Positions 2,301-43,050 of a DNA stretch of 43,090 nt are shown piece after piece. The stretch spans positions 1-43,090 of the forward strand of contig JAHEYW010000004.1 in the NCBI GenBank assembly GCA_023251395.1. The letters are read 5' to 3'. Numbering within the stretch: the stretch's first letter is position 1; each line of letters starts with the position of its first letter. Source of the DNA: Bacteroidales bacterium. GTDB taxonomy: Bacteria > Bacteroidota > Bacteroidia > Bacteroidales > VadinHA17. A program made the position numbers and the translations under genes. The notes under the pieces are model-generated. The model made no database searches. It was not told the DNA's origin and was given only the letters and a program-made list of their open reading frames with translations.

Positions 2301-3488
2301 ATGAGAAATAAAGTAATAATAATTGGCACTTTGCTGGTAATATTGGTATCGGCATTTCTTATCATTAAGCCATCAGGTAAAAAAGAGACTGCTCTCACCT
2401 TCGAAACCGTAAGGGTCAAAAAGGACAACATAACCAACGCTGTGACCGCCACCGGAACAATCCAGGCGATAAGGACCGTTAATGTAGGCACGCAGGTATC
2501 CGGGATTCTTCAAAACATTTATGTGGATTTCAACGATGTTGTCCATAAAGGTCAGGTGCTTGCCAGGCTTGATGAGACTCCGCTTAAGACACAGCTTGAC
2601 CAAAGCCAGTCACAGGTCGATCAGTCTCAGGCGCAACTTAATCTGAATGCATCTACCTTCGAGAGATTGAAACCTTTGTATGAAAAACAACTTATTGCTA
2701 AATCAGATTATGATCAGGCTCTGTTTAATTATGAGAACTCAAAGGCATCGCTAAGCAACGCCAGATCTGGATTGGCAAGAGCTCAGGTAAACCTTAACTA
2801 TGCAACAATTACCTCGCCAATAAATGGAGTGGTTTTAAACCGTGCCGTGGAGGAAGGCCAGACCGTTGCTGCAAGCTTCAGTACTCCCACACTATTCACC
2901 ATTGTAAACGATCTGACTCAGATGGAAGTACAGACTAGTGTTGATGAAGCGGATATAGGCAAGATACAGCAGGGACAGCGGGTGGAGTTTACCGTTGATG
3001 CATATCCTGATATGAAATTCGAAGCATCAGTTTCGCAGGTCCGTCTTCAACCGGTAACCACTAATAATGTAGTTACATATGTGGTAATTTTAAGAGCTCC
3101 TAATCCGGATAAAAATCTGATGCCCGGAATGACTGCCAGTGCGACCATCTATGTGCAGGAAAAAAAGAATGCCCTCACTCTTTCAGGTAAGGCAGTAAGG
3201 TTTACTCCCGATTCATTGTACCTGAAAAAAATGACACAGGGACTTCCACCTTCAGGTACGGAATCCTTACCAGTGAAAGGTGAACCAAAAACAAAAACTA
3301 TCTGGCTAAAAGATGAAAAAATGGGATTACGTCCTGGTCTGGTTAAGATCGGGATCGACAACGGTAATGATGTCGAAGTTCTTTCAGGATTGAAAGAGGG
3401 GGATGAAGTAGTTATTTCAGCAAATAACTCCCAGGTGAAAAAAAGTACAAGAAGAAGTAATAATGAAGGACCTCCAATGATGTTTTAA
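2301..3488 (+). CDS. HlyD/MacA-type periplasmic efflux adaptor
   Basis: N-terminal TM anchor. Lipoyl-like motif [26 protein letters not shown], a coiled hairpin, and the second lipoyl half [20 protein letters not shown]. Confidence 0.85.
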
Positions 3489-5511: not shown

Positions 5512-5584
5512 TTTAAAGGAATAAACTAAATTTGAAATCAGTTAACATTCATTGATCCAAAGCAACAAGACAAATTTCCACGGA

Positions 5585-6685
5585 ATGAATACTCCTTTAC
5601 TTATCAGAAATAAAACCAAGATATTTTTACATGTGCTGGGATGGACAATACTTCTTGGTTTACCGCTGTACTTCAGCAAAAGCTGGCAGGTCGGGAATGA
5701 TTTTCTGTGGATTGTCTTTTGCAATACTATTATATACGGAATAATCTTCTATACAAATTTTTTTATTCTGGTTCCCTGGTTTTTTTATAGGAACAGAAGA
5801 GTTAGTTACTTTATACTGTCGCTGTTATTGCTGGTCTCACTTTATTTTGTGACTGACATTACAAATAAAGTTGTCATCGAACATGTTACAGTCAGCCAGG
5901 CTGCTCAGATTAAAAATTATTCTCCGGACAATCCCGGCAATGATAATAAACAAGGGCCAACATACAGGGATGTTCAGCTTTTCAGGTACGGATTCACTTC
6001 ATTGTTTTTCATTTTCCTTTCCATGGGCATAAGAGTTGTCGAACGTCAGTCGCAGATAGAAAAATTTCAGAAAGAACTGGAAAAGGAGAAGCTTAACTCA
6101 GAGCTTGCCATGCTGAAAAACCAGATCAGTCCTCATTTTTTCTTCAATACACTAAATAATATATATTCACTTATAAGTATAAACGCATCAGATGCAAAAG
6201 TTGCAGTATTAAAACTTTCAAAGATGATGCGCTATATGCTCTATGATTCGGAAAACGGGAGTTGCAGATTAAGCAGTGAAATAGAATTCATGAGTAGCTA
6301 CATCGATCTTATGAAACTGAGAATGAATGATAAGATCAGGCTTTCGGTCTCATTTCCTGATAAATTTGACGATTTAAACATACCACCGCTTCTCTTTATT
6401 CCATTCATCGAAAATGCGTTTAAGCATGGAATAACCAATCGCAGAAAATCATTCATTGATATAAAACTGTATATCGATAATGGTTCTATTAATTTCACCT
6501 GTATAAACAGCATCGGAAATGGCATTGTAGAAACCAGTTCAGAAACCTCGGGTATCGGTCTTGAGAATGTGAGCAAACGACTGAACCTTCTTTTTCCAGG
6601 CAAGCATTCACTAAAAATCAATAAAACCGAAGATACTTTTGAAATCCTTTTGAATATTGTACCGGAAATATTACTGTCCGGGTAG
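5585..6685 (+). CDS. LytS/YehU-type sensor histidine kinase (multi-TM N-terminus, His_kinase + HATPase)
   Basis: Motif NQISPHFFFNTLNNIYSLI (PF06580-type H-box). C-terminal ATPase-like region with IPFIENAFKHG and SGIGLENV. I chose the ATG at 5585; the ORF track starts at an upstream TTG (5552). Confidence 0.85.
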   Translation: MNTPLLIRNKTKIFLHVLGWTILLGLPLYFSKSWQVGNDFLWIVFCNTIIYGIIFYTNFFILVPWFFYRNRRVSYFILSLLLLVSLYFVTDITNKVVIEHVTVSQAAQIKNYSPDNPGNDNKQGPTYRDVQLFRYGFTSLFFIFLSMGIRVVERQSQIEKFQKELEKEKLNSELAMLKNQISPHFFFNTLNNIYSLISINASDAKVAVLKLSKMMRYMLYDSENGSCRLSSEIEFMSSYIDLMKLRMNDKIRLSVSFPDKFDDLNIPPLLFIPFIENAFKHGITNRRKSFIDIKLYIDNGSINFTCINSIGNGIVETSSETSGIGLENVSKRLNLLFPGKHSLKINKTEDTFEILLNIVPEILLSG

Positions 6686-7272: not shown

Positions 7273-7335
7273 TTCTGAGAATTTTTAAAAGGGGTTGTCT
7301 GTAAGCCCCTTTTATTTTCTTTTTTGTGTCCTCAA

Positions 7336-8052
7336 ATGATGATAACCACTATTGCTATAGACGACGAACCTCTTGCTCTGCAACTTGTTACAGACTATAT
7401 TGCGAAAACACCAGGGCTTAAGCTCCTGGGAAAATTCGACAATCCCCTGGAAGCAGCTGACTTTATTGCAAAAACAATAGTTGACCTCATTTTTGTGGAT
7501 ATCCAGATGCCTGATATTTCCGGCATTGAATTTACCAGATCACTTGAAAAGGGACCCAAGGTGATATTCACTACAGCTTTTGAAAAATATGCCATAGAGG
7601 GTTATAAGCTTGAGATCGTTGATTACCTTTTAAAACCTTTCAGCTATGAAGAGTTTTTGACCGCTTTACGGAAAGCGCAGAAGATGATAAAACTGGAGCA
7701 AAGAGAATTAAATAAAATTGAAGCAAACAATGAATTTCTCTTTCTCAAGTCGGATTACAAAATAAAACGTATCAATTTTAATGATATCCTTTACATCGAA
7801 GGACTAAAAGACTATGTAAAGGTATATCTGCACAATGTTGGGAAACCTGTCCTTTCCATCTCCTCCCTGAAACTTCTTGAATCCAAATTACCTCCTGAAA
7901 AATTCATGAGAGTCCACCGCTCATTTATCGTAAATCTTGAAAAAATTGATACAATTGACCGGAGCAGGATTGTTTTTGGGAAAGAATATATTCCTGTAAG
8001 CGATCAGTATAAGGTCAGATTTCAAGAATTCCTTGATAAGAACTTTCTATAA
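7336..8052 (+). CDS. LytTR-family response regulator
   Basis: Receiver motifs IAIDDEP, DIQMPDISG, LLKPF. C-terminal LytTR motif FMRVHRSFIVNLEKI. Confidence 0.9.
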   Translation: MMITTIAIDDEPLALQLVTDYIAKTPGLKLLGKFDNPLEAADFIAKTIVDLIFVDIQMPDISGIEFTRSLEKGPKVIFTTAFEKYAIEGYKLEIVDYLLKPFSYEEFLTALRKAQKMIKLEQRELNKIEANNEFLFLKSDYKIKRINFNDILYIEGLKDYVKVYLHNVGKPVLSISSLKLLESKLPPEKFMRVHRSFIVNLEKIDTIDRSRIVFGKEYIPVSDQYKVRFQEFLDKNFL

Positions 8053-8584: not shown

Positions 8585-8627
8585 CTCATAATCAGGGGGT
8601 CGGGGGATCGTGCCCAGCTGGGCCCAC
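8585..8627 (+). repeat. Second, 5'-truncated copy of the tRNA-like 3' fragment (direct repeat of positions 1-43)
   Basis: 41 of 43 positions are identical to 1-43. Both differences (GCTGG to GGGGG) fall in the T-stem and break two pairs. There is no matching anticodon-stem 5' arm or acceptor 5' arm upstream, so this is not a complete tRNA. Confidence 0.8.
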
Positions 8628-8630
8628 TTA

Positions 8631-8676
8631 AAAAAGAGCGAGAGTGAGAGCGAGAGCGAGCACATCGCTCTTTTTT
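8631..8676 (+). terminator. Terminator-like hairpin with T-run inside a GA/CT-rich low-complexity stretch
   Basis: AAAAAGAGCGA (8631-8641) pairs with TCGCTCTTTTT (8665-8675). An alternative tighter stem is GAGCG/CGCTC. T6 runs from 8671 to 8676. Confidence 0.4.
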
Positions 8677-8798
8677 CTCAATACTCACTCTCACACTCAC
8701 ACTTATTCTTCCGGCGCCAGGTTTAGATAAGACCGGTTTTACTATTTTTGTCATCTCCGGGTCGTAATGAGATTCGAATCTGAACTGATTTTATAACA

Positions 8799-9794
8799 AT
8801 GCTTACTATTTATTCATCGCCACTTCAGGGATTTACTGATTTTCGATTTCGTAATGCCTTTCAACAGTTTTTTGGAGGGATTGACAAATATATTGCCCCA
8901 TATATACGGATAAATGAAAAACAGGAAATTAAACCAGGCTATGAACGCGATCTGTTACCTGCAAATAATAGATCGCTTGACCTTATTCCTCAGATAATTA
9001 CCAAAGATGCCGATGAATTTTTGTTTGTGGCAAAGTATGTTCAAAAGCTTGGATATAATGAACTGAACTGGAATCTGGGATGTCCATATCCTATGATCGC
9101 AAAAAAAGGAATGGGTTCCGGTTTGCTGAGTATGCCTGAGAAGATTGACGAAATTCTAAACAGGGTTTGTGCTGAGACAGATATTCAGGTATCGGTAAAA
9201 ATGAGACTGGGCTACGAAAGTTCGAAAGAAATATCTTATGTCTTACCTGTACTGGAGAGATACCGGCTGGCAAATATCACAATACACCCTCGAATTGGGA
9301 AACAGATATATAAGGGGGAAGTTGATCTTAAAGCCTTTGAAAACTGCCTCGGACAAACCTCTCATAAAATTTTCTATAACGGTGATATTACATCAATCCA
9401 GCGCTTTCGGGAAATGAAAGAACGCTTCCCGGCTATCAATCATTGGATGATAGGCAGGGGTCTGATTTCGGACCCATTTTTACCCGCTATGATTAAAGCA
9501 GATAATCCTGTCTATCCAGGAAATAGATATGAAATATTTTACTCTTTTCATGATGCCCTCTTTTCTTCCTATGAAGAGGCATTATTTGGACCAAAACATC
9601 TTCTGATGAAAATGTATTCTTTCTGGGAGTTCTTTATACAATCATTTCCCCTCTCACAAAAATATCTTAAAAGGATTAAAAAAGCCCATAACCTGGGTGC
9701 GTACAGGGAAGTGGTTCAACAAATATTATACAACGAAGCTGTTAATCGTGCCCGGCAAGGGCCTGACTCGTATGGAGGCTCAAACAATTATTGA
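8799..9794 (+). CDS. tRNA-dihydrouridine synthase (Dus family)
   Basis: N-terminal SPLQGFTDFRFRN. TIM-barrel-like motifs ELNWNLGCP, VSVKMRLG, ITIHPR and MIGRGLISDPFL. Confidence 0.8.
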   Translation: MLTIYSSPLQGFTDFRFRNAFQQFFGGIDKYIAPYIRINEKQEIKPGYERDLLPANNRSLDLIPQIITKDADEFLFVAKYVQKLGYNELNWNLGCPYPMIAKKGMGSGLLSMPEKIDEILNRVCAETDIQVSVKMRLGYESSKEISYVLPVLERYRLANITIHPRIGKQIYKGEVDLKAFENCLGQTSHKIFYNGDITSIQRFREMKERFPAINHWMIGRGLISDPFLPAMIKADNPVYPGNRYEIFYSFHDALFSSYEEALFGPKHLLMKMYSFWEFFIQSFPLSQKYLKRIKKAHNLGAYREVVQQILYNEAVNRARQGPDSYGGSNNY

Positions 9795-9840
9795 TGTAAT
9801 TTTGTTATAATTCAGAATCAAGAAACAAATTGCACCATAA

Positions 9841-10605
9841 ATGAAAATCATATCATGGAATGTTAACGGCATCAGGGCGATTGCTAAAAAATCCTTTTTT
9901 ACAGAGATTGACAGGATGTCCCCTGATATCCTTTGTCTTCAGGAAACCAAAGCGCAGGATCACCAGGTGGCAGAAGCAATCGGGATGCTCGATGGTTACC
10001 AACTTTATTCCTGTTCTGCCGAAAGACCAGGTTATTCAGGGACTGCAACTCTTACGAAGGTCAAGCCACTGGCTGTAACTAAAGGAATTGGCATTGGCGA
10101 ACACGACACGGAAGGAAGGGTTTTATGCCTGGAATTTGAAAAATATTTCCTTGTTAATGTTTATGTTCCGAATTCCGGCAGCGAATTATTAAGACTGGGA
10201 TACAGACAAAACTGGGATAAGGCATTGTTTGATTATCTGAAAAGCCTCGAAAAGACAAAACCAGTTATAGTTTGTGGTGACCTTAATGTTGCTCATAAAC
10301 CAATCGATCTTGCCCGGCCAAAAGATAACTACAATAAAAACGCCGGATACATGCAGGAAGAGATCGATGGCATGGATCGTTTTACAAGCGGTGGATTTGC
10401 TGATACATTCAGGGTTCTCTATCCTGATGTAAAAGACAGATATTCCTGGTGGAGCTTCAGGGCAGGAGCCAGATCAAAGAATATTGGCTGGAGAATAGAT
10501 TATTTCCTCGTAAGCGAATTATTTCTTCCGTCTGTACGTGATGCATTTATTCTTGAGGAAGTTACAGGATCGGACCATTGCCCCGTAGGGATTGAAATAT
10601 CCTGA
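9841..10605 (+). CDS. xth: Exodeoxyribonuclease III
   Basis: MKIISWNVNGIRA, LCLQETK, GDLNVAH, SWWSFR, RIDY and SDHCPV are all canonical ExoIII/APE motifs. Confidence 0.93.
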   Translation: MKIISWNVNGIRAIAKKSFFTEIDRMSPDILCLQETKAQDHQVAEAIGMLDGYQLYSCSAERPGYSGTATLTKVKPLAVTKGIGIGEHDTEGRVLCLEFEKYFLVNVYVPNSGSELLRLGYRQNWDKALFDYLKSLEKTKPVIVCGDLNVAHKPIDLARPKDNYNKNAGYMQEEIDGMDRFTSGGFADTFRVLYPDVKDRYSWWSFRAGARSKNIGWRIDYFLVSELFLPSVRDAFILEEVTGSDHCPVGIEIS

Positions 10606-14011: not shown

Positions 14012-15280
14012 TTATTTCCACCAGGTCTCTCCTTCAACCAGATATTTTTCTTTGATCAGTTTTTCATTTAGCTCGATACCAAATCCGGGCCGGTCGCTCA
14101 GTTGAATGTGTCCGTTTTTGATCATTTCTTTATCGTAACCCAAAACATCAGGATCTCCGTTTATTCCCTTCCCGGCCCTGTTCATTGGATTATTGATAAA
14201 AGTTTCATGTGCTACAAATTCACGTACGGTTGCTGCAAAATTCGCTGAAGCGATTGTCGCAATCGGACCGGCTACGTTGTGTGTACAAACCGGTATGTAG
14301 TAAGTTTCTGCAAGATCGGCTATCTTTTTGGCTTCCAGAAGCCCTCCGGCCATAGATACATCAATCTCTATCATATTCACCCCCTGGTTCACAATAAATG
14401 GACGGAAGTCGTCCCGGGTATATAAGTTCTCTCCAGTAAGTATTGGAACAGGTGATTTCTCGGTTAGTTTAACCCATTGTTCGTTATAGGCAATCGGCAG
14501 AGGATCTTCCAGCCATATAGGCCGCATAGGAGCAACAGCATTAGCAACACGTAATGCACTATCAAAATCAAACTCCCAATGGCAATGAACAGCTATATCG
14601 AATTCAGGTCCCAATGCTTCCCTCATATTGCTGAAGCCTTTTGCAATTTTGTCTACTCCCATATTTGAAAGCCTGCGGTTGTCGAGCCGGTTCCACGACT
14701 GATCCCTGTCAATATCGCTCTTACATGCTGTCCAGCCCTGACTTTTCATCAATGTTGCAAACTCCTTGCATGAATCTATATCCATCATATTTCGCGGACG
14801 GGACGAAGCATAAGCCCTGACTTCATTAACATGACTTCCACCACCTAAAATCTTGCGAACAGGTTGTTCGGTGATTTTTCCAATCAGATCCCACATTGCA
14901 AACTCTACCCCGGTTATAGCATGTGTTGCTATTCCATGATTACCCCCATAATATGATGTGCGCGTGCTCATCTTGAAGACCAGATACTCCAGATCCAACG
15001 GGTCTTGTCCCATCAGTATGGGTTTACAAACATTCAGGACAATATCCTTGGCGCCGAGACCATTCTCGTCGTGATGACATTCTCCAATACCGATCAAACC
15101 GACATCGGTCGTGATTTTGACCAAAGGACTTACCCTCATACCTATTTTTGTCCTGACACATTGTACGTCAGTAATTTTTACTTTCCCTTTCAGAGGATTG
15201 GCAAAAAGGTCCAAAGAGGGTAAACATGCGAGTACAGGGGCTGTGATGGCCAGGTTTCTGATAAAATTCCTTCTCTTCAT
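14012..15280 (-). CDS. Enolase-superfamily enzyme (mandelate racemase / acid-sugar dehydratase-like) with a twin-arginine signal peptide
   Basis: MKRRNFIRNLAITAPVLA is a Tat-type signal. Family motifs GIGECHHD, DIAVHCHWEF, WLEDP, TGEN, CTHNVAGPIA. Start moved to the ATG that gives MKRRNF. Confidence 0.8.
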   Translation of the reverse strand: MKRRNFIRNLAITAPVLACLPSLDLFANPLKGKVKITDVQCVRTKIGMRVSPLVKITTDVGLIGIGECHHDENGLGAKDIVLNVCKPILMGQDPLDLEYLVFKMSTRTSYYGGNHGIATHAITGVEFAMWDLIGKITEQPVRKILGGGSHVNEVRAYASSRPRNMMDIDSCKEFATLMKSQGWTACKSDIDRDQSWNRLDNRRLSNMGVDKIAKGFSNMREALGPEFDIAVHCHWEFDFDSALRVANAVAPMRPIWLEDPLPIAYNEQWVKLTEKSPVPILTGENLYTRDDFRPFIVNQGVNMIEIDVSMAGGLLEAKKIADLAETYYIPVCTHNVAGPIATIASANFAATVREFVAHETFINNPMNRAGKGINGDPDVLGYDKEMIKNGHIQLSDRPGFGIELNEKLIKEKYLVEGETWWK

Positions 15281-15310
15281 TTTTATCTTTTTTATATTCG
15301 TTATCACTTT

Positions 15311-16579
15311 TTATCCCCACCATTTTTCACCTTCAACCAGGTACTTCATGGCCACATCTTTATTCAGGTCAAGTCCGAGACCAGGTTTGTCAGAGAGTTG
15401 AATATACCCGTCTTTTATTATATCTCTGTCGTATACAACCAGACTACCCCAATTGGCATGACCATCGCGGGAATCTTTGCTGTAATCGTAGCTCTCATGA
15501 CCGATAAAATCAAGCATGGTTGCGGCACAATTTGCTGAAGCAATTGTTGCTATAGGACCCATTACGTTGTGGGTTGCAACGGGCATATAGTAGGTGTTTG
15601 CCAGTTCGGCAATCTTCTTTGCTTCAAGCAATCCACCAGCCATTGAAATATCGATCTCGACCATATGAACTGCCTGATTAACAATAAATGGAAGGAAGTC
15701 ATACAATGTATAAAGGTTTTCGCCTGTAGAGACACATATTGGTGAAGCAGCAGTAAGTTTGGCCCAGGTTTCAACATAGTTTATTGGCATTGGGTCCTCG
15801 ATCCACCAGGGTCTGATTGGCTCCAGAGCTTTTGCAAAACTCAATGCATCATAAAACCCAAATTCCCAGTGACAATGTACAATAATCTCAAAATCATCAC
15901 CAGCTGCCTCTCTTAAATTACTAAATGCCTGGATATTCGTTTTCAGCTCAGCATTGGAGAGACGGCGATTTAATTCACTACCACCGGGCCTTCTGGAGAT
16001 TCTGAAAGGTTTTGCAGCAGTCCATTTTTGAACTGAGGCGTTAACGTAATCGATCCATTCTTTGCAGACGGCTTTATCGAGCATATTTCTGGGCTGGCTT
16101 GTCAGATAAGCTCTTACTTTATCAGCATAACATCCTCCTCCAAGAATTTTTCTGAGTGGCATATTGAGCAGTTTTCCTGTGAGGTCCCAGAGAGCAATTT
16201 CGCACCCGGTAACTGCATGTATCCCAATGCCTCCGTTGCCACCTGTATATGATATACGCCACTTCATCAATTGAGTGAGACGTGCAATATCGAAAGGATC
16301 CTGTTTTACCAGTATTTGTTTGAACGCGTTCAGAACTACCTCTTTGGCTGCCAGTCCGGTTATATCATGGTGGCATTCACCAATTCCATAAACACCTGCA
16401 TCGGTTTCGATTTTAACCAGAGGCAGAACATGTCCTCTGCTACCTATCTGAACACGCATGAATTTTACATCAGTTATGGTGACTTTCCCTTTCTGTGGTT
16501 CAGCAAGGCTGCCAAAGTTTGGGATTGCAGCAGCGGCAGGTACAGTGGCTGCCATTTGTAAGAACGTTTTTCTTTCCAT
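15311..16579 (-). CDS. Paralogous enolase-superfamily enzyme with a signal-like N-terminus (RK variant)
   Basis: MERKTFLQMAATVPAAAAIP N-terminus. It carries the same motif set as its neighbour (GIGECHHD, IIVHCHWEF, WIEDP, TGEN, ATHNVMGPIA). By eye, roughly half the positions are identical to 14012-15280. Confidence 0.8.
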   Translation of the reverse strand: MERKTFLQMAATVPAAAAIPNFGSLAEPQKGKVTITDVKFMRVQIGSRGHVLPLVKIETDAGVYGIGECHHDITGLAAKEVVLNAFKQILVKQDPFDIARLTQLMKWRISYTGGNGGIGIHAVTGCEIALWDLTGKLLNMPLRKILGGGCYADKVRAYLTSQPRNMLDKAVCKEWIDYVNASVQKWTAAKPFRISRRPGGSELNRRLSNAELKTNIQAFSNLREAAGDDFEIIVHCHWEFGFYDALSFAKALEPIRPWWIEDPMPINYVETWAKLTAASPICVSTGENLYTLYDFLPFIVNQAVHMVEIDISMAGGLLEAKKIAELANTYYMPVATHNVMGPIATIASANCAATMLDFIGHESYDYSKDSRDGHANWGSLVVYDRDIIKDGYIQLSDKPGLGLDLNKDVAMKYLVEGEKWWG

Positions 16580-28771: not shown

Positions 28772-29185
28772 TCAGAGCCTGAGTTTTTCTGATATTGATA
28801 TCAGGTTATCAAGATCATTATCATATTCTTTGACCAGTTTCTGAGGAAATTCACCAAACCCTTTCATTCTTCTTGATTTTGAATTATTAAGAGTTTCCCA
28901 GATTTTTGTTTTTTTGGCGTTAATAACCCGTTGCAGGCTTTGAACAGTTTTTTCGGTGTTATATTTTTCTTTTAACAGGCAAATCAATGAAAGTGCTTCG
29001 CCAATCACTTTATTATTATGTTCAATAGTTTCATTATCAATATCATTATTGATCTCATAACAGCATCCCTGGTTTGAATTTACCATCATCTGCTGCATAT
29101 CGATGAGTAACTGCTCAACTACAATTAAGGTGGATGATAGAGATCTTTTGTGATTTTCCGCAAGTATAATTATGTCCTGGTCCAT
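28772..29185 (-). CDS. Hypothetical cytoplasmic, probably helical, protein
   Basis: ORF with no signal peptide and no recognisable motif. Confidence 0.45.
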   Translation of the reverse strand: MDQDIIILAENHKRSLSSTLIVVEQLLIDMQQMMVNSNQGCCYEINNDIDNETIEHNNKVIGEALSLICLLKEKYNTEKTVQSLQRVINAKKTKIWETLNNSKSRRMKGFGEFPQKLVKEYDNDLDNLISISEKLRL

Positions 29186-29312: not shown

Positions 29313-30215
29313 TTAAAAATTAATGTGTTTCAGACTATCAATCACATCATCGATCCGTACCCAGAAAACACCAACATCGGAATAATCGGCTTTGGTGCCA
29401 GTTGAATAGAACAGGTATTTATTATCAGGAGTAACCCAGGGACCCCAGCTTCCAAGGCCGAAGTCAATTTTACGACCAAAGTTTACCGGGTTTGTCCAGC
29501 TCCCATCATTCTTCCTGAAACTAATACTTAATCCGGGACGGTTTGTTACTATCATATAAGACTCGTCGGGCGAAACAAAAAAGTCGAGATTATCGACAAT
29601 ATTGTTCAGCGGCCTTCCCAGGCTTATTGCAGTGGTATCAATACCTTTTATAAAAACCTTGCACCAGTCATTTAACCCAAGACCATTGCCTGAATTGGTT
29701 GATATATAATAATTTCCATTTCTTGTAGTCTGGCAATAATGTGCTTTAATTAGCCTGGTTAAGATCCTTTTGGGATTTCCCCAGGCAGATCCCTTTTTTA
29801 CAGTGATATATGACTCGGAATTGTTTATTAAATCCTTCCTTTCAAAGTACATCGTATCTCCTGTAACTGATAAGGCAGGTGCATAGCCATCAAACATATC
29901 GAAAGGGCCTTCCCATTTTCCGTTTGAGAAGCTATACCTTTTAATATTCTCTCCTTTTATGGGGTAGTAACTTTTAATCTCCGAATAATAGATATTTTTC
30001 CCGTCAGGCGAGATTGCAATACGTTCTGCAGCGAAGAATCCCTGTTTGACCGTCAGCGGGAATCTCTTAGGTGTATTTGCGGGAGGGATCTGACCCAGAT
30101 AAAGGTTTCCGGCAGGTATTGATTGAGTAAAACCGGATAGTCCAACAGATGAAAAAACCAGCGAAATAAAAATTGTTTTTATTCCGGGCACGATCTTAAT
30201 AGTTTTGGTGCACAT
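29313..30215 (-). CDS. Secreted beta-propeller-like protein (PD40/TolB-like repeats)
   Basis: Signal peptide present. Repeated SPDG/TPDN..Y(F)YS motifs (ISPDGKNIYYS, VSPDESYMIV, VTPDNKYLFYS). Confidence 0.6.
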   Translation of the reverse strand: MCTKTIKIVPGIKTIFISLVFSSVGLSGFTQSIPAGNLYLGQIPPANTPKRFPLTVKQGFFAAERIAISPDGKNIYYSEIKSYYPIKGENIKRYSFSNGKWEGPFDMFDGYAPALSVTGDTMYFERKDLINNSESYITVKKGSAWGNPKRILTRLIKAHYCQTTRNGNYYISTNSGNGLGLNDWCKVFIKGIDTTAISLGRPLNNIVDNLDFFVSPDESYMIVTNRPGLSISFRKNDGSWTNPVNFGRKIDFGLGSWGPWVTPDNKYLFYSTGTKADYSDVGVFWVRIDDVIDSLKHINF

Positions 30216-30250
30216 TTCTATTTAAGGTTTTAGTTTAAAGAAATTTAAAC

Positions 30251-30321
30251 CCAAAGGAAACAGAGATGGAAACTAAATCAAAGGAAAATATGGTAAGCGG
30301 TCCGAAAATGTGTTAAGCGGT
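30251..30321 (-). promoter_or_regulatory. Predicted LytTR-box pair plus activator-dependent promoter (copy 1)
   Basis: In gene orientation: ACCGCTTAACACATTTTCGG, then ACCGCTTACCATATTTTCC, then TTTG, 23 nt, TTTG. 52/71 positions are identical to 41159-41229 without gaps. Confidence 0.6.
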
Positions 30322-30492: not shown

Positions 30493-30996
30493 ATGAAACC
30501 ATTGAAGGAGGAATTTCTCGAGATTATATCAAATTATCAGGGAATCTTGCACAAGGTTAACTTCATCTATTTCAGGAATAGTACTGACAGGGAGGATAAC
30601 TTCCAGGAAATCCTGTACCAGCTCTGGAAATCATATCCCGATTTAAAAAACAGAGAAAGCATTGGGTCCTGGATTTATGCTGTTTCAATAAATACCTCTA
30701 TTTCCAGATTAAAGAAAAAATCGCAGATTGAGTATCGGGAAGAGTTGCCCGAATCCATTGATACAAATGATTATGATGAAGAAATGTCAAAGGATAATAA
30801 TCTCAGGATGTTACTGGAGGCAATAAGCAACCTCAATGAAATCGATAAATCAATTTTGCTGCTATATCTGGAAGAAAGGAGTTATGATGAAATCTCTGAA
30901 GTACTGGGTATTTCAAAATCCAATGTAGGCGTCCGGATTAACAGGGCAAAAGAATCATTGAAAAAAACATTAAATCTCAAAGAAAATGGGAACTGA
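30493..30996 (+). CDS. ECF-type RNA polymerase sigma-70 factor
   Basis: Region 2-like EDNFQEILYQLWKSY and region 4 HTH SYDEISEVLGISKSNVGVRINRAK. Confidence 0.85.
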   Translation: MKPLKEEFLEIISNYQGILHKVNFIYFRNSTDREDNFQEILYQLWKSYPDLKNRESIGSWIYAVSINTSISRLKKKSQIEYREELPESIDTNDYDEEMSKDNNLRMLLEAISNLNEIDKSILLLYLEERSYDEISEVLGISKSNVGVRINRAKESLKKTLNLKENGN

Positions 30997-32972: not shown

Positions 32973-33557
32973 ATGGAAAGCAAAGAATTTACACCATCAG
33001 AAAGCTTAGCTTTAATTACGAATGTAATACTAGAGGCTAAATCAAGATTTAAGGATAATGGCTTTTCGTTCATATTTATTGGATTATGCAGTTTTGTCGC
33101 AAGTTTAGCGCAATTTGTCCTTCTTAAACTGGAATATTACCGTATTGATTATTATCCATATTTTATTATGCCTGTAGCCGCCGCAGTTACATACTTTTAT
33201 TATAAAAAGAAAAGAGATGCAACTAAGTCAAAAAATATTATTGGCAGATTTATCAGTATTCTTAGTGGTATACTGGGATTTAATTTAATGGTTGCCGGGT
33301 TTTTCTTTTGGAGTAAATTTGGAATTGCATTAATTCCCTTTATGTTGATTCTGTTCTCAATGTGGCCGCTTATGGCAGGTATTCTGATCAAAAGCAGAGT
33401 TTTCATGATTTCAGGATTAGTAATTAATATAATTGCTTACGTGTCTTTCTTTATTTCAAGAGAGTATCATCCGTTGATCTTATCGATCGTTTCTTTAATC
33501 GGAATTGTTATACCGGGATTAATCCTTAATTATTCAAGTAAAGAGAGCCATGTATAA
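32973..33557 (+). CDS. Hypothetical multi-TM membrane protein
   Basis: Five to six hydrophobic segments. Its stop overlaps the downstream regulator gene by 8 nt. Confidence 0.6.
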   Translation: MESKEFTPSESLALITNVILEAKSRFKDNGFSFIFIGLCSFVASLAQFVLLKLEYYRIDYYPYFIMPVAAAVTYFYYKKKRDATKSKNIIGRFISILSGILGFNLMVAGFFFWSKFGIALIPFMLILFSMWPLMAGILIKSRVFMISGLVINIIAYVSFFISREYHPLILSIVSLIGIVIPGLILNYSSKESHV

Positions 33558-33840
33558 AGACCTGGATCCATTATTGCATTCCCAATTACGTCTCGCCATT
33601 GTTTCTCTCCTGATGACAAGTGATGAGGTCGATTTTAACCTTATAAAGGAAACAACTAATGCGACCTCCGGCAATATCAGTGTTCAGATAAAAAAGCTAC
33701 AGGAAGCGGGCTATATTGAAGTTGTGAAATCATTTAAGAACAATTATCAAAATACATCACTTACAATAACGAAGAAGGGGATAAAAGCATTTGAAGAATA
33801 TGTTGAGAGTCTAAAACAATACCTTAAAACGGATAATTGA
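33550..33840 (+). CDS. Small winged-helix transcriptional regulator (HTH_34-like)
   Basis: LDPLLHSQLRLAIVSLL ... SGNISVQIKKLQEAGYIEV ... ITKKGIKAFEEY matches the pattern I recall for PF13601-type winged-helix proteins. Confidence 0.7.
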   Translation: MYKDLDPLLHSQLRLAIVSLLMTSDEVDFNLIKETTNATSGNISVQIKKLQEAGYIEVVKSFKNNYQNTSLTITKKGIKAFEEYVESLKQYLKTDN

Positions 33841-37023: not shown

Positions 37024-37956
37024 TTATAATACTTTAATAGCCACTCCTCCCTTTTTATGTCCTTTCTCAACATATCTGTGAGCTTTGACGATCTCTTCAA
37101 ACTGATAGCACCTGTCAACGACCGGCTTTATATGTCCCGCCTCCACCAGTACCCTGATTTTTTCCAGACGAGCGGAGTCTAATAACAGGGGTTCATCATC
37201 AATAGACACATACTTCCCTTCCGGAGTGAGTGAGTTTTTGATCTCTTTTTTAAATCCGGACGTTTTGTTTTTTCCAACTGCATCGAGAATAAAATCATAA
37301 TTTACACCTGGCTCAGAATGGTCCACTCTTGTATAATCTATCATTTCATCTGCGCCCAGGGATTTTGCTAATTCCAGATTTTCACTACTGCATACTGCAG
37401 TTACTTTCGCTCCCAGAAACTTCGCAAATTGAATTGCGATTGTCCCGGTTGTCCCTGACGCCCCATAGATCAGAACTTTTTGTCCAGGCTGAATATTCCC
37501 CTTTTCCATAAACTGGAATGCCAGGAGTCCGCCGTATGCTGCAACAGTGGCTTCTTCAAAAGACAAATTCTCAGGCATCATCGACAGGCAGCCCTGCTTC
37601 GAGTCTGTCTCTTTCATACACTTAAATTCAGCGTAAGCCCCAAGACTGAATCCGGTAAGGCCATAAATCCTGTCTCCGGGCTTAAATCGATTTATGTTTT
37701 TTCCGGCCGATTCAATTTCTCCCGCAAGTACCAACCCTATTACAGGCCTTCGGGGTTTTGTTATCCCCATCATTAACCGGAATGGGATCAGAACCCTGAA
37801 AGGCACCTGTGAACCCCGGATGTAGAGATCGCTCGCAGTTACTGCTGAAGCATGAATTTTTATGCGGACCTCATTCTCCCTGGGAGCCGGGTTTTCAATT
37901 TCTCTGATTTGAAGAACGTCAGGCGGCCCGTATCTTGTACAAATAATGGCTTTCAT
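37024..37956 (-). CDS. MDR-family NAD(P)H-dependent oxidoreductase (quinone oxidoreductase / zinc-ADH-like)
   Basis: GDRIYG in the GroES-like domain. Rossmann motif LIYGASGTTGTIAIQFAK. C-terminal GHKKGGVAIKV. Confidence 0.85.
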   Translation of the reverse strand: MKAIICTRYGPPDVLQIREIENPAPRENEVRIKIHASAVTASDLYIRGSQVPFRVLIPFRLMMGITKPRRPVIGLVLAGEIESAGKNINRFKPGDRIYGLTGFSLGAYAEFKCMKETDSKQGCLSMMPENLSFEEATVAAYGGLLAFQFMEKGNIQPGQKVLIYGASGTTGTIAIQFAKFLGAKVTAVCSSENLELAKSLGADEMIDYTRVDHSEPGVNYDFILDAVGKNKTSGFKKEIKNSLTPEGKYVSIDDEPLLLDSARLEKIRVLVEAGHIKPVVDRCYQFEEIVKAHRYVEKGHKKGGVAIKVL

Positions 37957-37973: not shown

Positions 37974-38636
37974 TTATTTGGGTTGCTCTGTCTTCTTATT
38001 TCCAAATAAATTATGAGGCTTTTCCCTGAATCTTTCATTCATTATTAAGACAGTAACGAAAATGAATGCAATGAATGCTAATAGTACAATAATCTGGCTC
38101 AGAGATGTTTTTTGAATATCCTGCTTGTTTTTTACATCGCAGACTTCTCCCGGACAGTACTGCACTTTATCTTTAAAGAAGAGGGGATAAAACTTACAAC
38201 CCAGACATATTCCAAATGCCGATTCAAAGAACAGGAATATGAGACAGATAAGGCAGATAATTCCTGTAATCGGACTGAAAGCATTTACAATAATAAAAAA
38301 GATGAACATGGTTGCAGATAAGACAACGCCAATTATCCAGGCAAACTTTTTTTGTGCTGCGCCAACATATTCCGGAGTCTGATTCCGGACAATCAAACGA
38401 GCAAAAATAAGTGTTGGCGAAAATCTTGGATTTATAAAAACCCGTATAAGGAAATCGAAAAGGAAAAAGGTTATTACGTACTTTATCGGAATAAAGTTCC
38501 CTTTGAACAGAATGAACAATAATGAAGTGAATGTCGCCAGGAACAGGATCCCTGCAGCTGCCCTGATTTCGCGTTCATTTAAAACCGGGATATTATATCC
38601 CTCAACATCTTCTCCGAATTTGATTAATTTTTTCAT
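37974..38636 (-). CDS. DUF4395-like membrane protein
   Basis: N-terminal VEGYNIPVLNEREIRAAAGIL. TM segments and the motif ESAFGICLGCKFY, followed by CPGEVC. The family call is from memory. Confidence 0.65.
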   Translation of the reverse strand: MKKLIKFGEDVEGYNIPVLNEREIRAAAGILFLATFTSLLFILFKGNFIPIKYVITFFLFDFLIRVFINPRFSPTLIFARLIVRNQTPEYVGAAQKKFAWIIGVVLSATMFIFFIIVNAFSPITGIICLICLIFLFFESAFGICLGCKFYPLFFKDKVQYCPGEVCDVKNKQDIQKTSLSQIIVLLAFIAFIFVTVLIMNERFREKPHNLFGNKKTEQPK

Positions 38637-38649
38637 GAAAGTCTAATTT

Positions 38650-41130
38650 TTAAAAATATATGCGGTACATTAAGTTCGGGAAAAAGCCAAACTGCTTCAT
38701 ATAGCCAATTTTCCCGGGTTTACTATCGTCGTAATATTCCGACATTCTGCCCTGACTGTTCGTGAGGTTCATCAGATCCAGGAAGATTTCGTGGGTAGCC
38801 CCGGGTTTATTGAATTTATAGCTTACTGAAAAATTCATAAGAAAAAGATCCTCAAATTTATCATTATAGGCCTTGCTGAAGTCAAAATATCTGTCGTTCT
38901 GTGGTTCAACTGCAACATTCCCCTGAATATCTCTTAATAGAGGAACATACCGTTGTCCACCTTCAAAGAATATTTTTGTGTTCAACGCCAGAGTCTGGTT
39001 TTGTTTTTTACCAAGCTTCCGGAACTCTTTTCCAGCTAATATATTAACAATATAATTATTATTATAACGTGTATTTCGCCAGATGCCTTCCAGCGATTTG
39101 TATTTTGAATCGAACAGCGAGCCATTAATAAGAAAGTAGAAATTCTTATCAAAAAAACGTTCAATTGACATTTCAAGGCCATAGTTTTTACCATAGCCTT
39201 TATTAACAAGCTCAACATATTTATAATCAATTCCTTCATTGATGGTGGAATAACAACTGGTGTTATTATTTTCGACCGGCAGATTATATAAAAACTGGTA
39301 GTATGCCTCAACCTTTGCCATAAGATTTTCTGTAAAATGTTTTTCATAGCCCACGACAAAATGGTGGGCTTTTAACAATCCGAGGTTTTTATTGGGTTGT
39401 TTGTAACTACCGTCATCCTGAAGGATCCTGGTATAATAGTTTTGTATCCGCTCTGCTGTGCTGTGCATTCCATAGCCTGCATGCACGGAATTACTTTTAT
39501 TGATAACCCAGTTCAGGCTTAATCTTGGTTCAAGAGTGCTTTTATTATTCATTAAAACATTCATGTTATGTATTCCGGCGACAACACTTATTTTTTCATT
39601 TAAGCTATGTTTCCAGCTAATGAAATTATTTATAGTGCTTGCATTTACATTAAAGTCATTTATATATTTCACTGACTCTGCTTCATTGCTATAGATGTTT
39701 TGATTGTAATTGTAGTTATACAGCGTATACTTTGTGCCTATCTGAAATTTGTTTTTAGCGTTTATCTTATTGCTATAGGTAACCGCACCCCTGAATGCTG
39801 AATTAATAATCCTGCTTTGGATCATGTGCTTTCTGGGAGATATTTGATCTTCAGTTATTTCACTCTGATCGTTGTAAGTTCTTAAAGTATCAGTCTCATA
39901 AATATCATCGTTAAGTCCTGATCCTGAATAATTAATTGACGTTTTTATAAAACTATTATTATTAAGCGATAAGGTATGATTCATTCCGGCGTTGGCCAGG
40001 TAATTAGCCTTATAATAATCTTTACTGGCAAGAGCGCTGCTTGTTGTTCTGCCAGGGGTAGACAAACCGGTTGGCCCCATCTTTTCCATTGAAACACCAC
40101 TCAGGCCACCAAGCCCATAGAATGAAAAAGTACCTGTTCGTCTGGTGGGCAGAACTACTTTGAAAGTGGCATCCTGATAATTAACACCTCCCGGCACATC
40201 CACAAGTCCCAGATCTTTAATAAGTGATATTGTAGAATACCGGTAATTAAACAGGTATGAGCCTGCGTATCCTTTTTTAAACGGACCTTCGAGGGTAAGC
40301 TCTGTTCCCATTAAACCTATTCCGGTTGTTGCTTCAAATTTTTCGTTATTTCCAGCCCGTAGTTTTACGTCATAAATACAGGAGATCACATCTCCATATT
40401 CCGGTGAAAATGCACCGGTATAAAAATCTGATGTGCTTAAAAGATTGTTGTTAAGGGCAGTGAGTGCACCAAAGGAAGAATTTTGATCATCCATATGATA
40501 AGGGCTTGATATTTCTGCCCCATCCAGACGCCACTGCATATATTTTGGTGAGTTTCCCCGTACAATAATATCGCTGCTTCCGTCAGGCGTACTGGCGACC
40601 CCGGCAAATGATGCAACTACACGGGCGGGGTCGTCCATACCGCCGGTAAAACGCTTGGTTTCTTCAAGGGTAATGGAATGTGTGCTAAGTTGAGACATTT
40701 CGTTAATTGCCTCTCCTTTCTTTTTGTATCCGTTTACAACAACTTCATTCATTGTTGTAACAGATTCCTGCATAGTCAAATCCAGGACGACCTCTTTCCC
40801 TGAGTTTACTACAATATCCGGAATGGTTTTGGATGCATATCCAAGGTAAGATATTTTTATTGCTATTCTGCCTAACTGGATATTTCCAAATCTGAAATTT
40901 CCGTTTGCATCAGTTGTCGTTCCGATTAAAGGATCGGAACCAACGATTAATACTGTCGCTCCTATGAGCGGTAATTTGCTATCGAAATCATTTATAGTAC
41001 CTCTTACTGTCTGTTTGAGAGTCTGGCTAAACCCCAGTGTTGAGAATACTGTAATCATTAAAATGAATGAAATAAACTTTATTAAAAAAGGTGATTTCAA
41101 TTCGGTTCCTGACTGATTAAACTTTTCCAT
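38650..41130 (-). CDS. TonB-dependent receptor (CarboxypepD_reg + plug + 22-strand barrel)
   Basis: Signal peptide present. VRGTINDFDSKLPLIGATVLIVG ... GNFRF is the CarboxypepD_reg domain. The plug contains DPARVVASFAGV and IIVRGNSP. C-terminal YRIYF. Confidence 0.88.
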   Translation of the reverse strand: MEKFNQSGTELKSPFLIKFISFILMITVFSTLGFSQTLKQTVRGTINDFDSKLPLIGATVLIVGSDPLIGTTTDANGNFRFGNIQLGRIAIKISYLGYASKTIPDIVVNSGKEVVLDLTMQESVTTMNEVVVNGYKKKGEAINEMSQLSTHSITLEETKRFTGGMDDPARVVASFAGVASTPDGSSDIIVRGNSPKYMQWRLDGAEISSPYHMDDQNSSFGALTALNNNLLSTSDFYTGAFSPEYGDVISCIYDVKLRAGNNEKFEATTGIGLMGTELTLEGPFKKGYAGSYLFNYRYSTISLIKDLGLVDVPGGVNYQDATFKVVLPTRRTGTFSFYGLGGLSGVSMEKMGPTGLSTPGRTTSSALASKDYYKANYLANAGMNHTLSLNNNSFIKTSINYSGSGLNDDIYETDTLRTYNDQSEITEDQISPRKHMIQSRIINSAFRGAVTYSNKINAKNKFQIGTKYTLYNYNYNQNIYSNEAESVKYINDFNVNASTINNFISWKHSLNEKISVVAGIHNMNVLMNNKSTLEPRLSLNWVINKSNSVHAGYGMHSTAERIQNYYTRILQDDGSYKQPNKNLGLLKAHHFVVGYEKHFTENLMAKVEAYYQFLYNLPVENNNTSCYSTINEGIDYKYVELVNKGYGKNYGLEMSIERFFDKNFYFLINGSLFDSKYKSLEGIWRNTRYNNNYIVNILAGKEFRKLGKKQNQTLALNTKIFFEGGQRYVPLLRDIQGNVAVEPQNDRYFDFSKAYNDKFEDLFLMNFSVSYKFNKPGATHEIFLDLMNLTNSQGRMSEYYDDSKPGKIGYMKQFGFFPNLMYRIYF

Positions 41131-41158
41131 TATTTCATTAATTATTGGTTAAACTATT

Positions 41159-41229
41159 CCAAAGGAAATAATGCAAAACGCTTAATCAAAAGGAAATATG
41201 ATCAGCGGTCAGAAAAGATGATTAGCGGT
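41159..41229 (-). promoter_or_regulatory. Predicted LytTR-box pair plus activator-dependent promoter (copy 2)
   Basis: In gene orientation: ACCGCTAATCATCTTTTCTG, then ACCGCTGATCATATTTCCT, then TTTG, 23 nt, TTTG. It lies 29 nt upstream of the receptor start codon and directly downstream of the LytTR regulator gene. Confidence 0.6.
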
Positions 41230-41257: not shown

Positions 41258-41971
41258 TCAATTAAATGCCTTAAGTTTTCTGGCATACCTTCTGCTTACC
41301 TCAAGTGGTTCCGTGATATTTTTAAGAAAAGCCTGCGGTGGTTTATCAGGCCTTTTTTCTACCTTTTCGAGATGCTCAATATTGATGATACTTGACCGGT
41401 GAATCCTTTTAAAATTTGAAGAAGGAAGATCTTCTTCCCACTGTTTGAGTGTTTTTAATACCATGAAATGTTTACAATCACAGGTAAATATCCTGGAATA
41501 ATTACCAACCGGTTCAATAAATGTTATCGAGCTGATCTTGATGAACCTTGATGTGTAATTATTAAGCCGTACATATATACTATCAGAATAATCATAGCCC
41601 CTGGCAGCACAATCCTGTGTTATTCCCTTATTCATAACCCTTTCAATAGATTCTCCCAGCCGGTCGGGGTTGACGGGTTTCAGCAGATAATCCACTGCGT
41701 TTACATCGAATGCCCGGATTGCATATTCGTCGTATGCGGTAACAAAAATTATTTTAACTGACCTGCCGGTTACTGCAAGAAGATCAAAGCCTGTTTCCCC
41801 GCTCAACTGGATATCCAGAAAAATCAGCTGGGGATTATGCATGTTTATCAGTTCTGTTGCGGCACTACATGTGCCGGCCTCCCCAACAATTTCTATTCCG
41901 GGATATATCTCCAGCAATTTCAAAAGATTAACTCTTGCCAGCCTTTCATCATCAACTATTATTGCTTTCAA
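41258..41971 (-). CDS. LytTR-family response regulator
   Basis: Receiver motifs IIVDDERLAR, DIQLSGETG, LLKPV. C-terminal LytTR motif FKRIHRSSIINIEHL. Confidence 0.9.
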   Translation of the reverse strand: MKAIIVDDERLARVNLLKLLEIYPGIEIVGEAGTCSAATELINMHNPQLIFLDIQLSGETGFDLLAVTGRSVKIIFVTAYDEYAIRAFDVNAVDYLLKPVNPDRLGESIERVMNKGITQDCAARGYDYSDSIYVRLNNYTSRFIKISSITFIEPVGNYSRIFTCDCKHFMVLKTLKQWEEDLPSSNFKRIHRSSIINIEHLEKVEKRPDKPPQAFLKNITEPLEVSRRYARKLKAFN

Positions 41972-41976
41972 AATGT

Positions 41977-43050
41977 TTACCGGGTATTAATATTATTAAT
42001 CTCAATAGCTGCAATTACCCATCCGTTCTCTTCAGTCAGAGAAAATGAATAGTCATCATTATAAAATAATCCAAGCCTGTACTTGATGTTTTCAAGGCCA
42101 TTTCCCGTTCCATCAGAATTTGCTGCATTCACTCTAGCCGGATTTACTAATTTTCCTGTATTCAGTACGGAGATAGAGAGAGTCTTGTTTAACAGTTTAA
42201 CCAGCAGACGAATAACAAGACGCTGGTCCTCTGTCTTCTTCCCGTATTTTACTGCATTTTCAATAAGCAGGTGAATTACAAAAGATGGGATCATGATGTT
42301 TTTTACTGCTTCATCAAGAACAATTTCGTACTGAAATTCTTCCTCGAAACGCATCTTTTGGATCTCAAGGTATTTGGTAATTGATTCCACCTCTTTTTCG
42401 ATAGATATTGTCTGCTGTTGCTTAGTCAATGTATAGCGGTAATATTCTGACATCTCCAGAACCAGTTTCTTTGCTTTCTCGGTGTTTTCATCAATTAAGG
42501 CATATATCGAGTTCAGAACATTAAAAAGGAAATGCGGATTTATCTGGTACCTGAGCATTTTAAGGTGAATATCTTTTGACAATGTTTCTGTCTTATGAGC
42601 TGTCTCCTTTTGTCTGGCAGCTTGCAGAACGAGGTAAGTCAGGAAATAGGTTGCACTCAGAAAAAAGACCATCAGACTTACTCCCGGTGTGTACTTTTCA
42701 ATAAGATCAAACGATAAAGGATTCTGTACCTTAAATCCCAAAGCGATCGCCAGCCAGCTGCTTAAAAATAAAACAAGCGTCGGGACTGTTAATGCAAATC
42801 CAAATATTACAGACCAAAGCAGAAAAATCCTTTTTCTTTTTAATGTCCAATTGAAACAGTTTATAAGTATAAAAATAAATGGTAAAACTGAAATAAATTC
42901 AAACAGATAGTTCACTAAGATTGTTTTTGTTTTTCCAGGGGCCGGCGGAACCCATGCAAATGAATCAAGAGTCCTTGTTATAATCAAAAATACCAGAACA
43001 CCCAGCATATTGAAAAAAAACGGGAACTTTTTATATAATGTCTTAATCAT
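41977..43050 (-). CDS. LytS/YehU-type sensor histidine kinase
   Basis: Multi-TM N-terminus. H-box YQINPHFLFNVLNSIYALI. ATPase-like LLIENAVKYG and GNGLENI. Confidence 0.88.
   Translation of the reverse strand: MIKTLYKKFPFFFNMLGVLVFLIITRTLDSFAWVPPAPGKTKTILVNYLFEFISVLPFIFILINCFNWTLKRKRIFLLWSVIFGFALTVPTLVLFLSSWLAIALGFKVQNPLSFDLIEKYTPGVSLMVFFLSATYFLTYLVLQAARQKETAHKTETLSKDIHLKMLRYQINPHFLFNVLNSIYALIDENTEKAKKLVLEMSEYYRYTLTKQQQTISIEKEVESITKYLEIQKMRFEEEFQYEIVLDEAVKNIMIPSFVIHLLIENAVKYGKKTEDQRLVIRLLVKLLNKTLSISVLNTGKLVNPARVNAANSDGTGNGLENIKYRLGLFYNDDYSFSLTEENGWVIAAIEINNINTR

Follow-up and report, generated by a model that had tools for sequence, protein, structure and literature searches.

Paired direct repeats form a candidate LytTR-type operator-promoter module upstream of envelope-protein genes in Bacteroidales

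Introduction

Several described LytTR regulators act on paired direct repeats, a class to which the VirR box belongs by its spacing, and the half-site consensus of YehT/BtsR reads ACC[G/A]CT[C/T]A. LytTR sites in general consist of imperfect direct repeats of 8-13 bp, ~12 bp apart, whose spacing is critical (PMC4064291). AgrA acts as a dimer, binding just upstream of suboptimal promoters (PMC4227749), and the Escherichia coli oligonucleotide 'yjiY YehT bs' contains ACCGCTTA-N13-ACCACTCA (PMC4847170). LytTR regulators are numerous in Bacteroidota, and full-text literature searches that combined LytTR with this phylum or with the sigma-A consensus turned up no defined operator or regulon.

The present work concerns a 43,090-nt stretch of a Bacteroidales genome (VadinHA17 lineage, contig JAHEYW010000004.1), referred to in its entirety as the window. 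A first-pass annotation had described a 71-nt block shared by two distant minus-strand genes and had likened the direct repeats in it to those bound by AgrA. The architecture is indeed the classical one, shared with AgrA P2/P3, ComE, PlnC/D and VirR, in which two imperfect direct repeats lie immediately upstream of a suboptimal promoter (here a predicted one), but the repeats themselves are closer to the BtsR/YehT half-site than to that of AgrA. The 8-nt half-site found here, ACC[G/A]CT[T/n]A, equals that of BtsR/YehT, with a full match to ACC[G/A]CT[C/T]A in two of the four window units and A or G at position 7 in the other two; direct repeats are used in both systems, and both comprise a LytS-type kinase and a LytTR regulator. 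The explanation that we favor, with good though incomplete confidence, is that the blocks are activator-dependent promoter modules driven by the LytTR regulator RR2, encoded beside one of them. By analogy, the mechanism would be a standard one, in which direct repeats occupied by a tandem dimer enable transcription from a weak promoter, and this ordinary kind of regulation is apparently undescribed in Bacteroidota.

Results

Two blocks with paired repeats

The two candidate modules and their parts, all on the minus strand, are as follows.

30251..30321, minus strand: candidate operator-promoter module 1, upstream of the gene for a 300-aa propeller-like protein; 52/71 match to module 2
30302..30321, minus strand: distal unit of module 1, ACCGCTTAACACATTTTCGG, with its core ACCGCTTAACA at about -74 to -64 of the predicted start
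30282..30301, minus strand: proximal unit of module 1, ACCGCTTACCATATTTTCCT, at about -54 to -35
30279-30282, minus strand: -33 TTTG of module 1, its first base being the last T of the proximal unit
30252..30259, minus strand: -7-like box of module 1, TTCCTTTG; predicted start near 30247 if the box represents -12 to -5
41159..41229, minus strand: candidate operator-promoter module 2, between the LytTR regulator gene, whose stop codon it follows by 28 nt, and the TonB-type receptor gene that it precedes
41210..41229, minus strand: distal unit of module 2, ACCGCTAATCATCTTTTCTG
41190..41209, minus strand: proximal unit of module 2, ACCGCTGATCATATTTCCTT, with the -33 TTTG at 41187-41190
41160..41167, minus strand: -7-like box of module 2, TTCCTTTG; predicted start near 41155

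An ungapped comparison of the reverse complements (minus-strand 30321-30251 against 41229-41159) gave 52 identical positions out of 71, the same count as had been made by hand, while the best match of block 1 among all other 71-mers on both strands of the window reached 35/71. When the blocks were extended by 10 nt on each side, just 5 matches were gained in the 20 added positions, and the similarity ends at both edges. The four repeat units proved on re-reading to have been spelled exactly (ACCGCTTAACACATTTTCGG and ACCGCTTACCATATTTTCCT in block 1, ACCGCTAATCATCTTTTCTG and ACCGCTGATCATATTTCCTT in block 2); both units of each block follow the pattern ACCGCTnAnCA, and their starts, like the ACCGCT cores singled out earlier, are exactly 20 nt apart. 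In both blocks the pair is followed by TTTG, 23 nt and TTCCTTTG, the promoter-like arrangement that the first-pass annotation had reported. The blocks end 35 nt from the ATG at 30215 and 28 nt from the ATG at 41130, which agrees within counting convention with the 29-36 nt given before.

The window contains two instances of the paired pattern, where 100 dinucleotide-preserving shuffles give an expectation of 0.00. The single-unit pattern, with two mismatches allowed, occurs 14 times, a number reached by 21 of the 100 shuffles. Single units are thus at chance frequency and only the pairing is significant; the paired repeats are real and non-random.

Transcriptome work on a flavobacterium placed the sigma-A box TAnnTTTG at -12 to -5 (PMC9723704), and it is from this position that transcription is predicted to start near 30247 and 41155, which would put the distal unit at about -74 to -55 and the proximal one at about -54 to -35. 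At its second position the -7 box consistently carries T in place of A (TTyCTTTG versus TAnnTTTG), a deviation that would fit a promoter requiring an activator. A scan with the sigma-70 consensus (58 sites versus 53 expected) was uninformative for Bacteroidota and was set aside.

Genes behind the modules

The genes relevant to the modules are listed below.

41977..43050, minus strand: HK2, LytS-type histidine kinase (PF06580) of 357 aa (Pfam His_kinase 1.7e-26)
41258..41971, minus strand: RR2, response regulator (Pfam Response_reg 9.9e-20, LytTR 1.7e-19)
38650..41130, minus strand: TonB-type outer-membrane receptor (CarboxypepD_reg and Plug), first gene behind module 2
37974..38636, minus strand: DUF4395 protein, with a 13-nt gap to the receptor gene
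37024..37956, minus strand: member of the Zn-dependent alcohol dehydrogenase (Zn-ADH)/quinone oxidoreductase family (Pfam)
30493-30996, divergent from block 1: ECF sigma factor (Sigma70_r2/r4), 171 nt away
29313..30215, minus strand: propeller-like protein of 300 aa, secreted; the gene that comes first after module 1
28772..29185, minus strand: 137-aa protein, after a 127-nt gap; kept after the propeller orthologue in locus L107
26625..28679, minus strand: MacB-type ABC permease (Pfam MacB_PCD and FtsX)
7324-8052: RR1, response regulator (Pfam Response_reg and LytTR)
5552-6685: kinase paired with RR1, adjoining OEP/HlyD/ABC/MacB efflux genes

Both genes put forward in the first-pass annotation as possible regulators, at 41258-41971 and 7324-8052 (there given as 7336-8052), do code for a Response_reg and a LytTR domain. 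HK2 is the presumed partner of RR2: its stop codon lies 5 nt from the start of the RR2 gene, and the orthologous loci show a 4-nt overlap of kinase and regulator genes. The N-terminal ~135 residues of HK2 are hydrophobic, which suggests several membrane segments. The window ends 40 nt upstream of the HK2 gene.

The DUF4395 gene is probably co-transcribed with the receptor gene, and the Zn-ADH gene is probably the last of this operon; DUF4395 genes also recur in motif-bearing loci. Behind module 1, the 137-aa protein possibly belongs to the same operon as the propeller-like gene, and the MacB permease is a possible distal member.

The 300-aa protein has no Pfam match, and an exact-sequence look-up returned no match either. 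Its AlphaFold model is all-beta with a modest pLDDT of 64, and in a Foldseek search against the PDB all top matches were beta-propellers, at TM-scores of only 0.3-0.45. The earlier label of beta-propeller is therefore plausible but not firm, being favored by the exclusive presence of propellers among the top folds and weakened by the low TM-scores and pLDDT. Homologues of the protein are either of ~300 aa or of ~400 aa, the latter carrying a He_PIG domain.

Orthologues of the receptor are many, at 75-83% identity. Two of them, in loci L088 (83%) and L089 (79%), reside among genes for MalT/GerE-type (STAND-LuxR) regulators and not beside the LytTR pair, and at L088:4640-4700 a different direct repeat, TCTCATGACCGnAGGGAATAAC, occurs twice ahead of a 67-aa ORF, itself located before the receptor gene. 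The receptor gene set of these genomes may thus answer to another regulator.

Further features were observed elsewhere in the window. The segment 30493-32788, comprising the ECF sigma gene and the genes for a 206-aa hydrophobic protein and an Abhydrolase_1 protein, has the look of an insertion when compared with the closest relatives: L107 and a 12,998-nt sister contig have, immediately beside the propeller gene, the 194-aa and HTH_34 genes that are found at 32973-33840 of the window. The two copies of a 51-nt direct repeat (1-51 and 8585-8635, 90% identity) are similar to a tRNA in its 3' half, with a CTCATAA loop and the stem-like GCTGG/CCAGC, and ARAGORN called no tRNA for them. They bracket the OEP/HlyD/ABC/MacB efflux operon and the first kinase-LytTR pair, and may have arisen as an att-like duplication when a segment was inserted. 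On the minus strand of 14012-16579, tandem paralogous genes of 431 and 422 aa, with 74-77% nucleotide identity over several segments, are an ordinary tandem duplication.

Recovery of related loci

Related loci, designated here by L numbers, were sought at both the DNA and the protein level. The strict DNA pattern ACCGCTN3CAN2TTT-N3-5-repeat, scanned over 185,579 species genomes, yielded six matches, of which L005 and L003 are real analogues, while L001, L002, L004 and L006 are plain 20/21-nt tandem repeats and were discarded as irrelevant. The strict pattern was too narrow, since orthologous sites use ACCACT. A protein-based metagenome scan with RR2 brought up only paralogues of <= 42% identity, with the motif in none of them, and a PDB sequence search with RR2 returned receiver domains only. 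The orthologues were reached by searching for proteins similar to the receptor, to RR2 and to the 300-aa protein and then looking up the contigs. A position weight matrix was then built from eight instances and run over all loci with periods of 19-21 bp.

Fixed geometry of the module

In the related loci, all 31 matrix matches have the 20-bp period, even though 19 and 21 were also permitted, and this period is kept throughout ~20 distinct promoters on at least nine contigs. With an 8-nt half-site, a 20-bp period leaves a spacer of 12 bp. In 19 of the ~20 promoters, 30 nt separate the proximal unit and the G of the CTTTG box; in the single exception the distance is 32 nt. An 11-nt core, ACCRCTnATCA, is conserved in both units of both blocks and in the ~20 related promoters. 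The repeat consensus is ACCRCTTATCAyATT, present twice at 20 bp start-to-start, and the consensus of the module reads aCCaCTTATCAyaTTatctg ACCGCTnATCATatTtcncT TtgAttaaG...TTtCTTTG. A possible inverted third half-site, TTGATTAAGC, resembling a partial unit at the -33 region of some copies, was dropped as a component, being missing from L090, L005 and L087.

The mean information per position was distributed as follows.

Upstream flank: 0.29 bit
Distal unit: 1.03 bit
Proximal unit: 1.14 bit
Spacer between -33 and -7: 0.64 bit
-7 box: 1.18 bit
Downstream: 0.31 bit

Conservation thus peaks at ACCRCT, ATCA and CTTTG and ends at the -7-like box, with the flanks at background. This profile bears on two other readings of the blocks. 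A conserved block upstream of coding sequences might be a transcribed cis-regulatory RNA, such as a leader or a riboswitch, but the conservation stops before the predicted start, and the distance to the start codon varies among copies. This candidate was rejected, with virtually no probability left to it, on the limits of the conservation, the folding z-scores (-0.28 and -0.75) and the lack of an Rfam match in the window.

Alternatively, the blocks could be copies of a recently duplicated promoter cassette or of a short dispersed repeat, their likeness reflecting common descent. The partly conserved spacer (0.64 bit) is in keeping with this, as is the occurrence of two or three copies inside 16 kb in several genomes, and part of the block similarity may indeed be due to recent common descent of promoter cassettes. 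Common descent would not, on the other hand, account for conservation that is position-specific, with its peaks in the two repeat cores and the CTTTG box, nor for a 20-bp period and 30-nt distance that are exact in genomes whose proteins are only 54-73% identical. Every copy of the motif is moreover co-oriented with the gene downstream of it, and the block is not a common intergenic repeat scattered at random, as had been considered in the first-pass annotation: two copies are present in the 43-kb window and none in ~0.65 Mb of loci with paralogous regulators. As the whole explanation, a duplicated cassette is highly improbable, and an activator-dependent promoter accounts better for the pattern.

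Conservation at the target genes

Conservation of the pair upstream of orthologous genes had been set beforehand as a test of the LytTR proposal, and it was found both at the syntenic receptor gene of L087 and at the 86% orthologue of the 300-aa protein in L107. In the latter locus the module is kept as ACCACTTATCACATTTTCAG ACCGCTTACCACATTTCCCT, then 30 nt ending in CCTTTG, and the upstream neighbors of the propeller gene differ from those of the window and do not include an ECF sigma gene. Propeller homologues fused to He_PIG in L090 (66%) and L005 (54%) lie directly behind a pair, and in L108 a pair precedes a PEGA-propeller operon. In L097, Zn-ADH genes stand directly behind the motif at 8752 and 13709, and elsewhere the motif lies before the gene of a second TonB-type receptor and before genes coding for 135, 214/219 and 238 aa. 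The motif mostly starts 90-130 nt upstream of the start codon, and in one case ~275 nt.

These loci also bear on the ECF sigma gene 30493-30996, which lies on the opposite strand 171 nt from block 1. Were the block a promoter for this or another ECF sigma factor, TTyCTTTG would be a -10 element and the repeats would be incidental; the uniform departure of the -7 box from TAnnTTTG, the same in almost every copy, would agree with such a role. Neither L107 nor the 12,998-nt sister contig, however, has the segment with the sigma, transmembrane-protein and hydrolase genes beside its propeller gene, and L107 keeps the module. No ECF sigma gene was called in the RR2-orthologue loci, and the box retains the TTTG of sigma-A at the right distance from the -33 TTTG. 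The ECF reading is accordingly given a very small probability, and a sigma-A promoter preceded by an operator is preferred.

Linkage to the RR2 gene

In six separately recovered loci, with RR2 orthologues of 68-100% identity, the pair starts 26-28 nt past the stop codon of the regulator gene, and is followed by genes of different kinds.

Window: RR2 (100%); next gene, TonB-type receptor
L087: RR2 orthologue (71%); next gene, TonB-type receptor
L092: RR2 orthologue (68%); next gene, MacB_PCD
L097-099: RR2 orthologue (70%); next gene, Zn-ADH
L100: RR2 orthologue (70%); next gene, PEGA-like protein
L101-106: RR2 orthologue (70%); next genes, 114-aa protein and then methyltransferase

The motif comes after the regulator gene every time among the RR2 orthologues (68-73% identity), and in L087 the order kinase-regulator-motif-receptor is syntenic with the window. 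A seventh case is provided by L090, in which the pair is found 18 nt past the gene of a 247-aa LytTR protein that is cut by the edge of the locus. The six loci share ancestry and are not fully independent.

The linkage does not extend to LytTR regulators at large. No motif was found in 80 loci with LytTR paralogues of <= 42% identity (~0.65 Mb), and among 74 of these distant loci just 3 had a significant repeat with a 19-22-bp period within 140 nt after the regulator gene. A general rule by which each LytTR regulator gene would have its operator behind it was rejected on this count, and the linkage is therefore specific to the RR2 orthologous group. RR1, which shares 26% identity with RR2, has no repeat pair nearby, and nothing ties it to the motif. 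Of the two regulators offered in the first-pass annotation, it is thus RR2, with the motif after all of its orthologues, that retains support, while RR1 does not. RR2 is most likely the binder of the repeats, although the association is one of guilt by adjacency.

A different regulator that uses direct repeats of ~20-21 bp reaching into the -35 region, for example an AraC/XylS-type activator encoded elsewhere, would make the RR2 gene merely a conserved neighbor. Direct repeats about two helical turns apart and next to the -35 element are typical of AraC/XylS activators as well, L089 has at its edge a gene for a response regulator of AraC type, and in L005 and L003 the motif is present with no LytTR gene within the 7-8 kb examined. 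Against this, neither an AraC-type gene nor any other regulator gene recurs beside the motif; the sole constant neighbor, in six loci with five kinds of downstream gene, is the RR2 orthologue with its kinase, and the half-site equals that of a proven LytTR regulator, BtsR. Control by another regulator is consequently judged unlikely, and RR2 is retained as the candidate.

For L087, L097, L100 and L101, no repeat pair was found in the 230 nt that precede the kinase gene, and a different conserved element is present there. In three genomes a conserved element, TATTGGATCGTGAAAATATTTGAAATATCTTTACATAAA, located ~110 nt upstream of the start codon of the HK2 orthologue (L087:2960-3000, L100:6800-6850 and L101:6800-6850), may be the promoter of the kinase-regulator operon itself (TTTG ... 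TATCTTTA). In L092 a block of ~170 nt, containing ...AGAACTAGTATAATTATTTTACA...ATTACGGCATGCGTATTGCAAATGATTTA..., occurs at 3250-3420 and 9720-9900, upstream of a TonB-type receptor gene and of the RR2 orthologue, and a shorter related string, CCACATTTGGCCGG, is found near 8285 in the window.

Discussion

Proposed mechanism

Each block would represent a complete activator-dependent promoter module, in which the operator is formed by the two imperfect direct repeats, 20 bp or about two helical turns apart. A tandem dimer of phosphorylated RR2 (41258-41971), the partner of the kinase at 41977-43050, would occupy these repeats. The proximal repeat abuts the Bacteroidota -33 TTTG and is set at a fixed 30 nt from the G of the non-consensus TTyCTTTG, such that RR2, placed at about -74 to -35, could recruit or stabilize the sigma-A polymerase at a weak promoter. 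Two units would thereby be switched on: the operon of the TonB-type receptor, DUF4395 and Zn-ADH genes, and that of the propeller-like protein and the 137-aa protein, possibly with the MacB permease. The architecture of the module, its conservation and fixed geometry, and its linkage to RR2 orthologues are observed; binding by RR2, activation as the direction of regulation, the start sites and the extent of the operons are predicted from the arrangement of sites and genes.

Significance

The module supplies a concrete consensus site, a candidate regulator and a candidate regulon met with repeatedly in genomes of many uncultured Bacteroidales, and the function of this widespread kinase-regulator pair and its envelope targets is now directly testable. 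A broader proposition is offered tentatively, and is more doubtful than the mechanism itself: that an undescribed regulon is widespread in uncultured Bacteroidales, in which a LytS/LytTR system with a small sensor controls an envelope set through a half-site identical to that of BtsR. In sister genomes (L088/L089) the receptor and ADH genes would answer to MalT/LuxR-type regulators via another repeat, and in L003, from another Bacteroidia lineage, a variant operator would drive tandem genes for lanthipeptide precursors. If the regulon is true, its envelope set would comprise the CarboxypepD_reg TonB receptor, propeller/He_PIG and PEGA proteins, DUF4395, Zn-ADH and the MacB permease; its sensor would be small and mostly membrane-embedded, and the BtsR-identical half-site would imply a LytTR recognition code conserved across phyla.

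Comparison with known LytTR systems

A close analogue in Bacteroidia is locus L003 (DATEMK010000395.1, a Bacteroidia MAG), in which ACCGCTyGTCAAATTT occurs twice at 20 bp and the G of the -7 box again lies 30 nt from the proximal unit. It differs from the window in the second half of the unit, where GTCAAA replaces ATCAyA, in its -7 box, which is the consensus TAGGTTTG, and in its targets, namely genes for Cys-rich peptides with a GG leader, behind which a LanC-like gene is found; the 6.9-kb contig has no LytTR gene. The peptides, four paralogues of 62-68 aa encoded on the minus strand of L003:2600-4460, begin with MKKIKITGKLSLNKETITQLSKNEMGQI[I/V]GG and have a Cys/Thr/Ser-rich core, and each of the four precursor-like genes is preceded by its own variant operator pair and a TAGGTTTG promoter. 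L003 looks like a lanthipeptide cluster under LytTR-type control.

With the operators of AgrA, ComE, PlnC/D and VirR the module shares its layout, whereas its half-site sequence differs from theirs and its period of 20 bp is 1 bp short of the usual 21 bp of the AgrA, ComE, Pln and BtsR sites. The agr, com and pln circuits are peptide quorum-sensing systems with autoregulated operons; here, the region upstream of the kinase-regulator genes is free of repeats in four orthologous loci, and no peptide or exporter gene is adjacent to HK2-RR2.

The likeness to BtsS/BtsR is closest at the level of the site: the window units begin with ACCGCTTA, ACCGCTTA, ACCGCTAA and ACCGCTGA, and the orthologous sites with ACCACTTA. 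The period differs, 20 bp in every copy here against 21 bp (13-bp spacer) at the E. coli BtsR site, and the promoter is of the Bacteroidota -33/-7 type, unlike that of E. coli btsT. The targets here are outer-membrane and envelope proteins, whereas that of BtsR is a pyruvate transporter of the CstA family (btsT/yjiY), a family with no match in a scan of 29 ORFs of the window or in the gene calls of the related loci. RR2 has 32% identity to BtsR and is no closer to it than RR1, with 31%; HK2 (357 aa) is 204 residues shorter than BtsS (561 aa) and aligns with it over the catalytic half only, at 28% identity. On these grounds (the regulator identities, the size of the kinase and the lack of a CstA-family gene among those scanned), RR2 was rejected as an orthologue of BtsR. 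The identity of the half-site with that of E. coli BtsR provides a handle on whether the DNA specificity of LytTR proteins holds across phyla.
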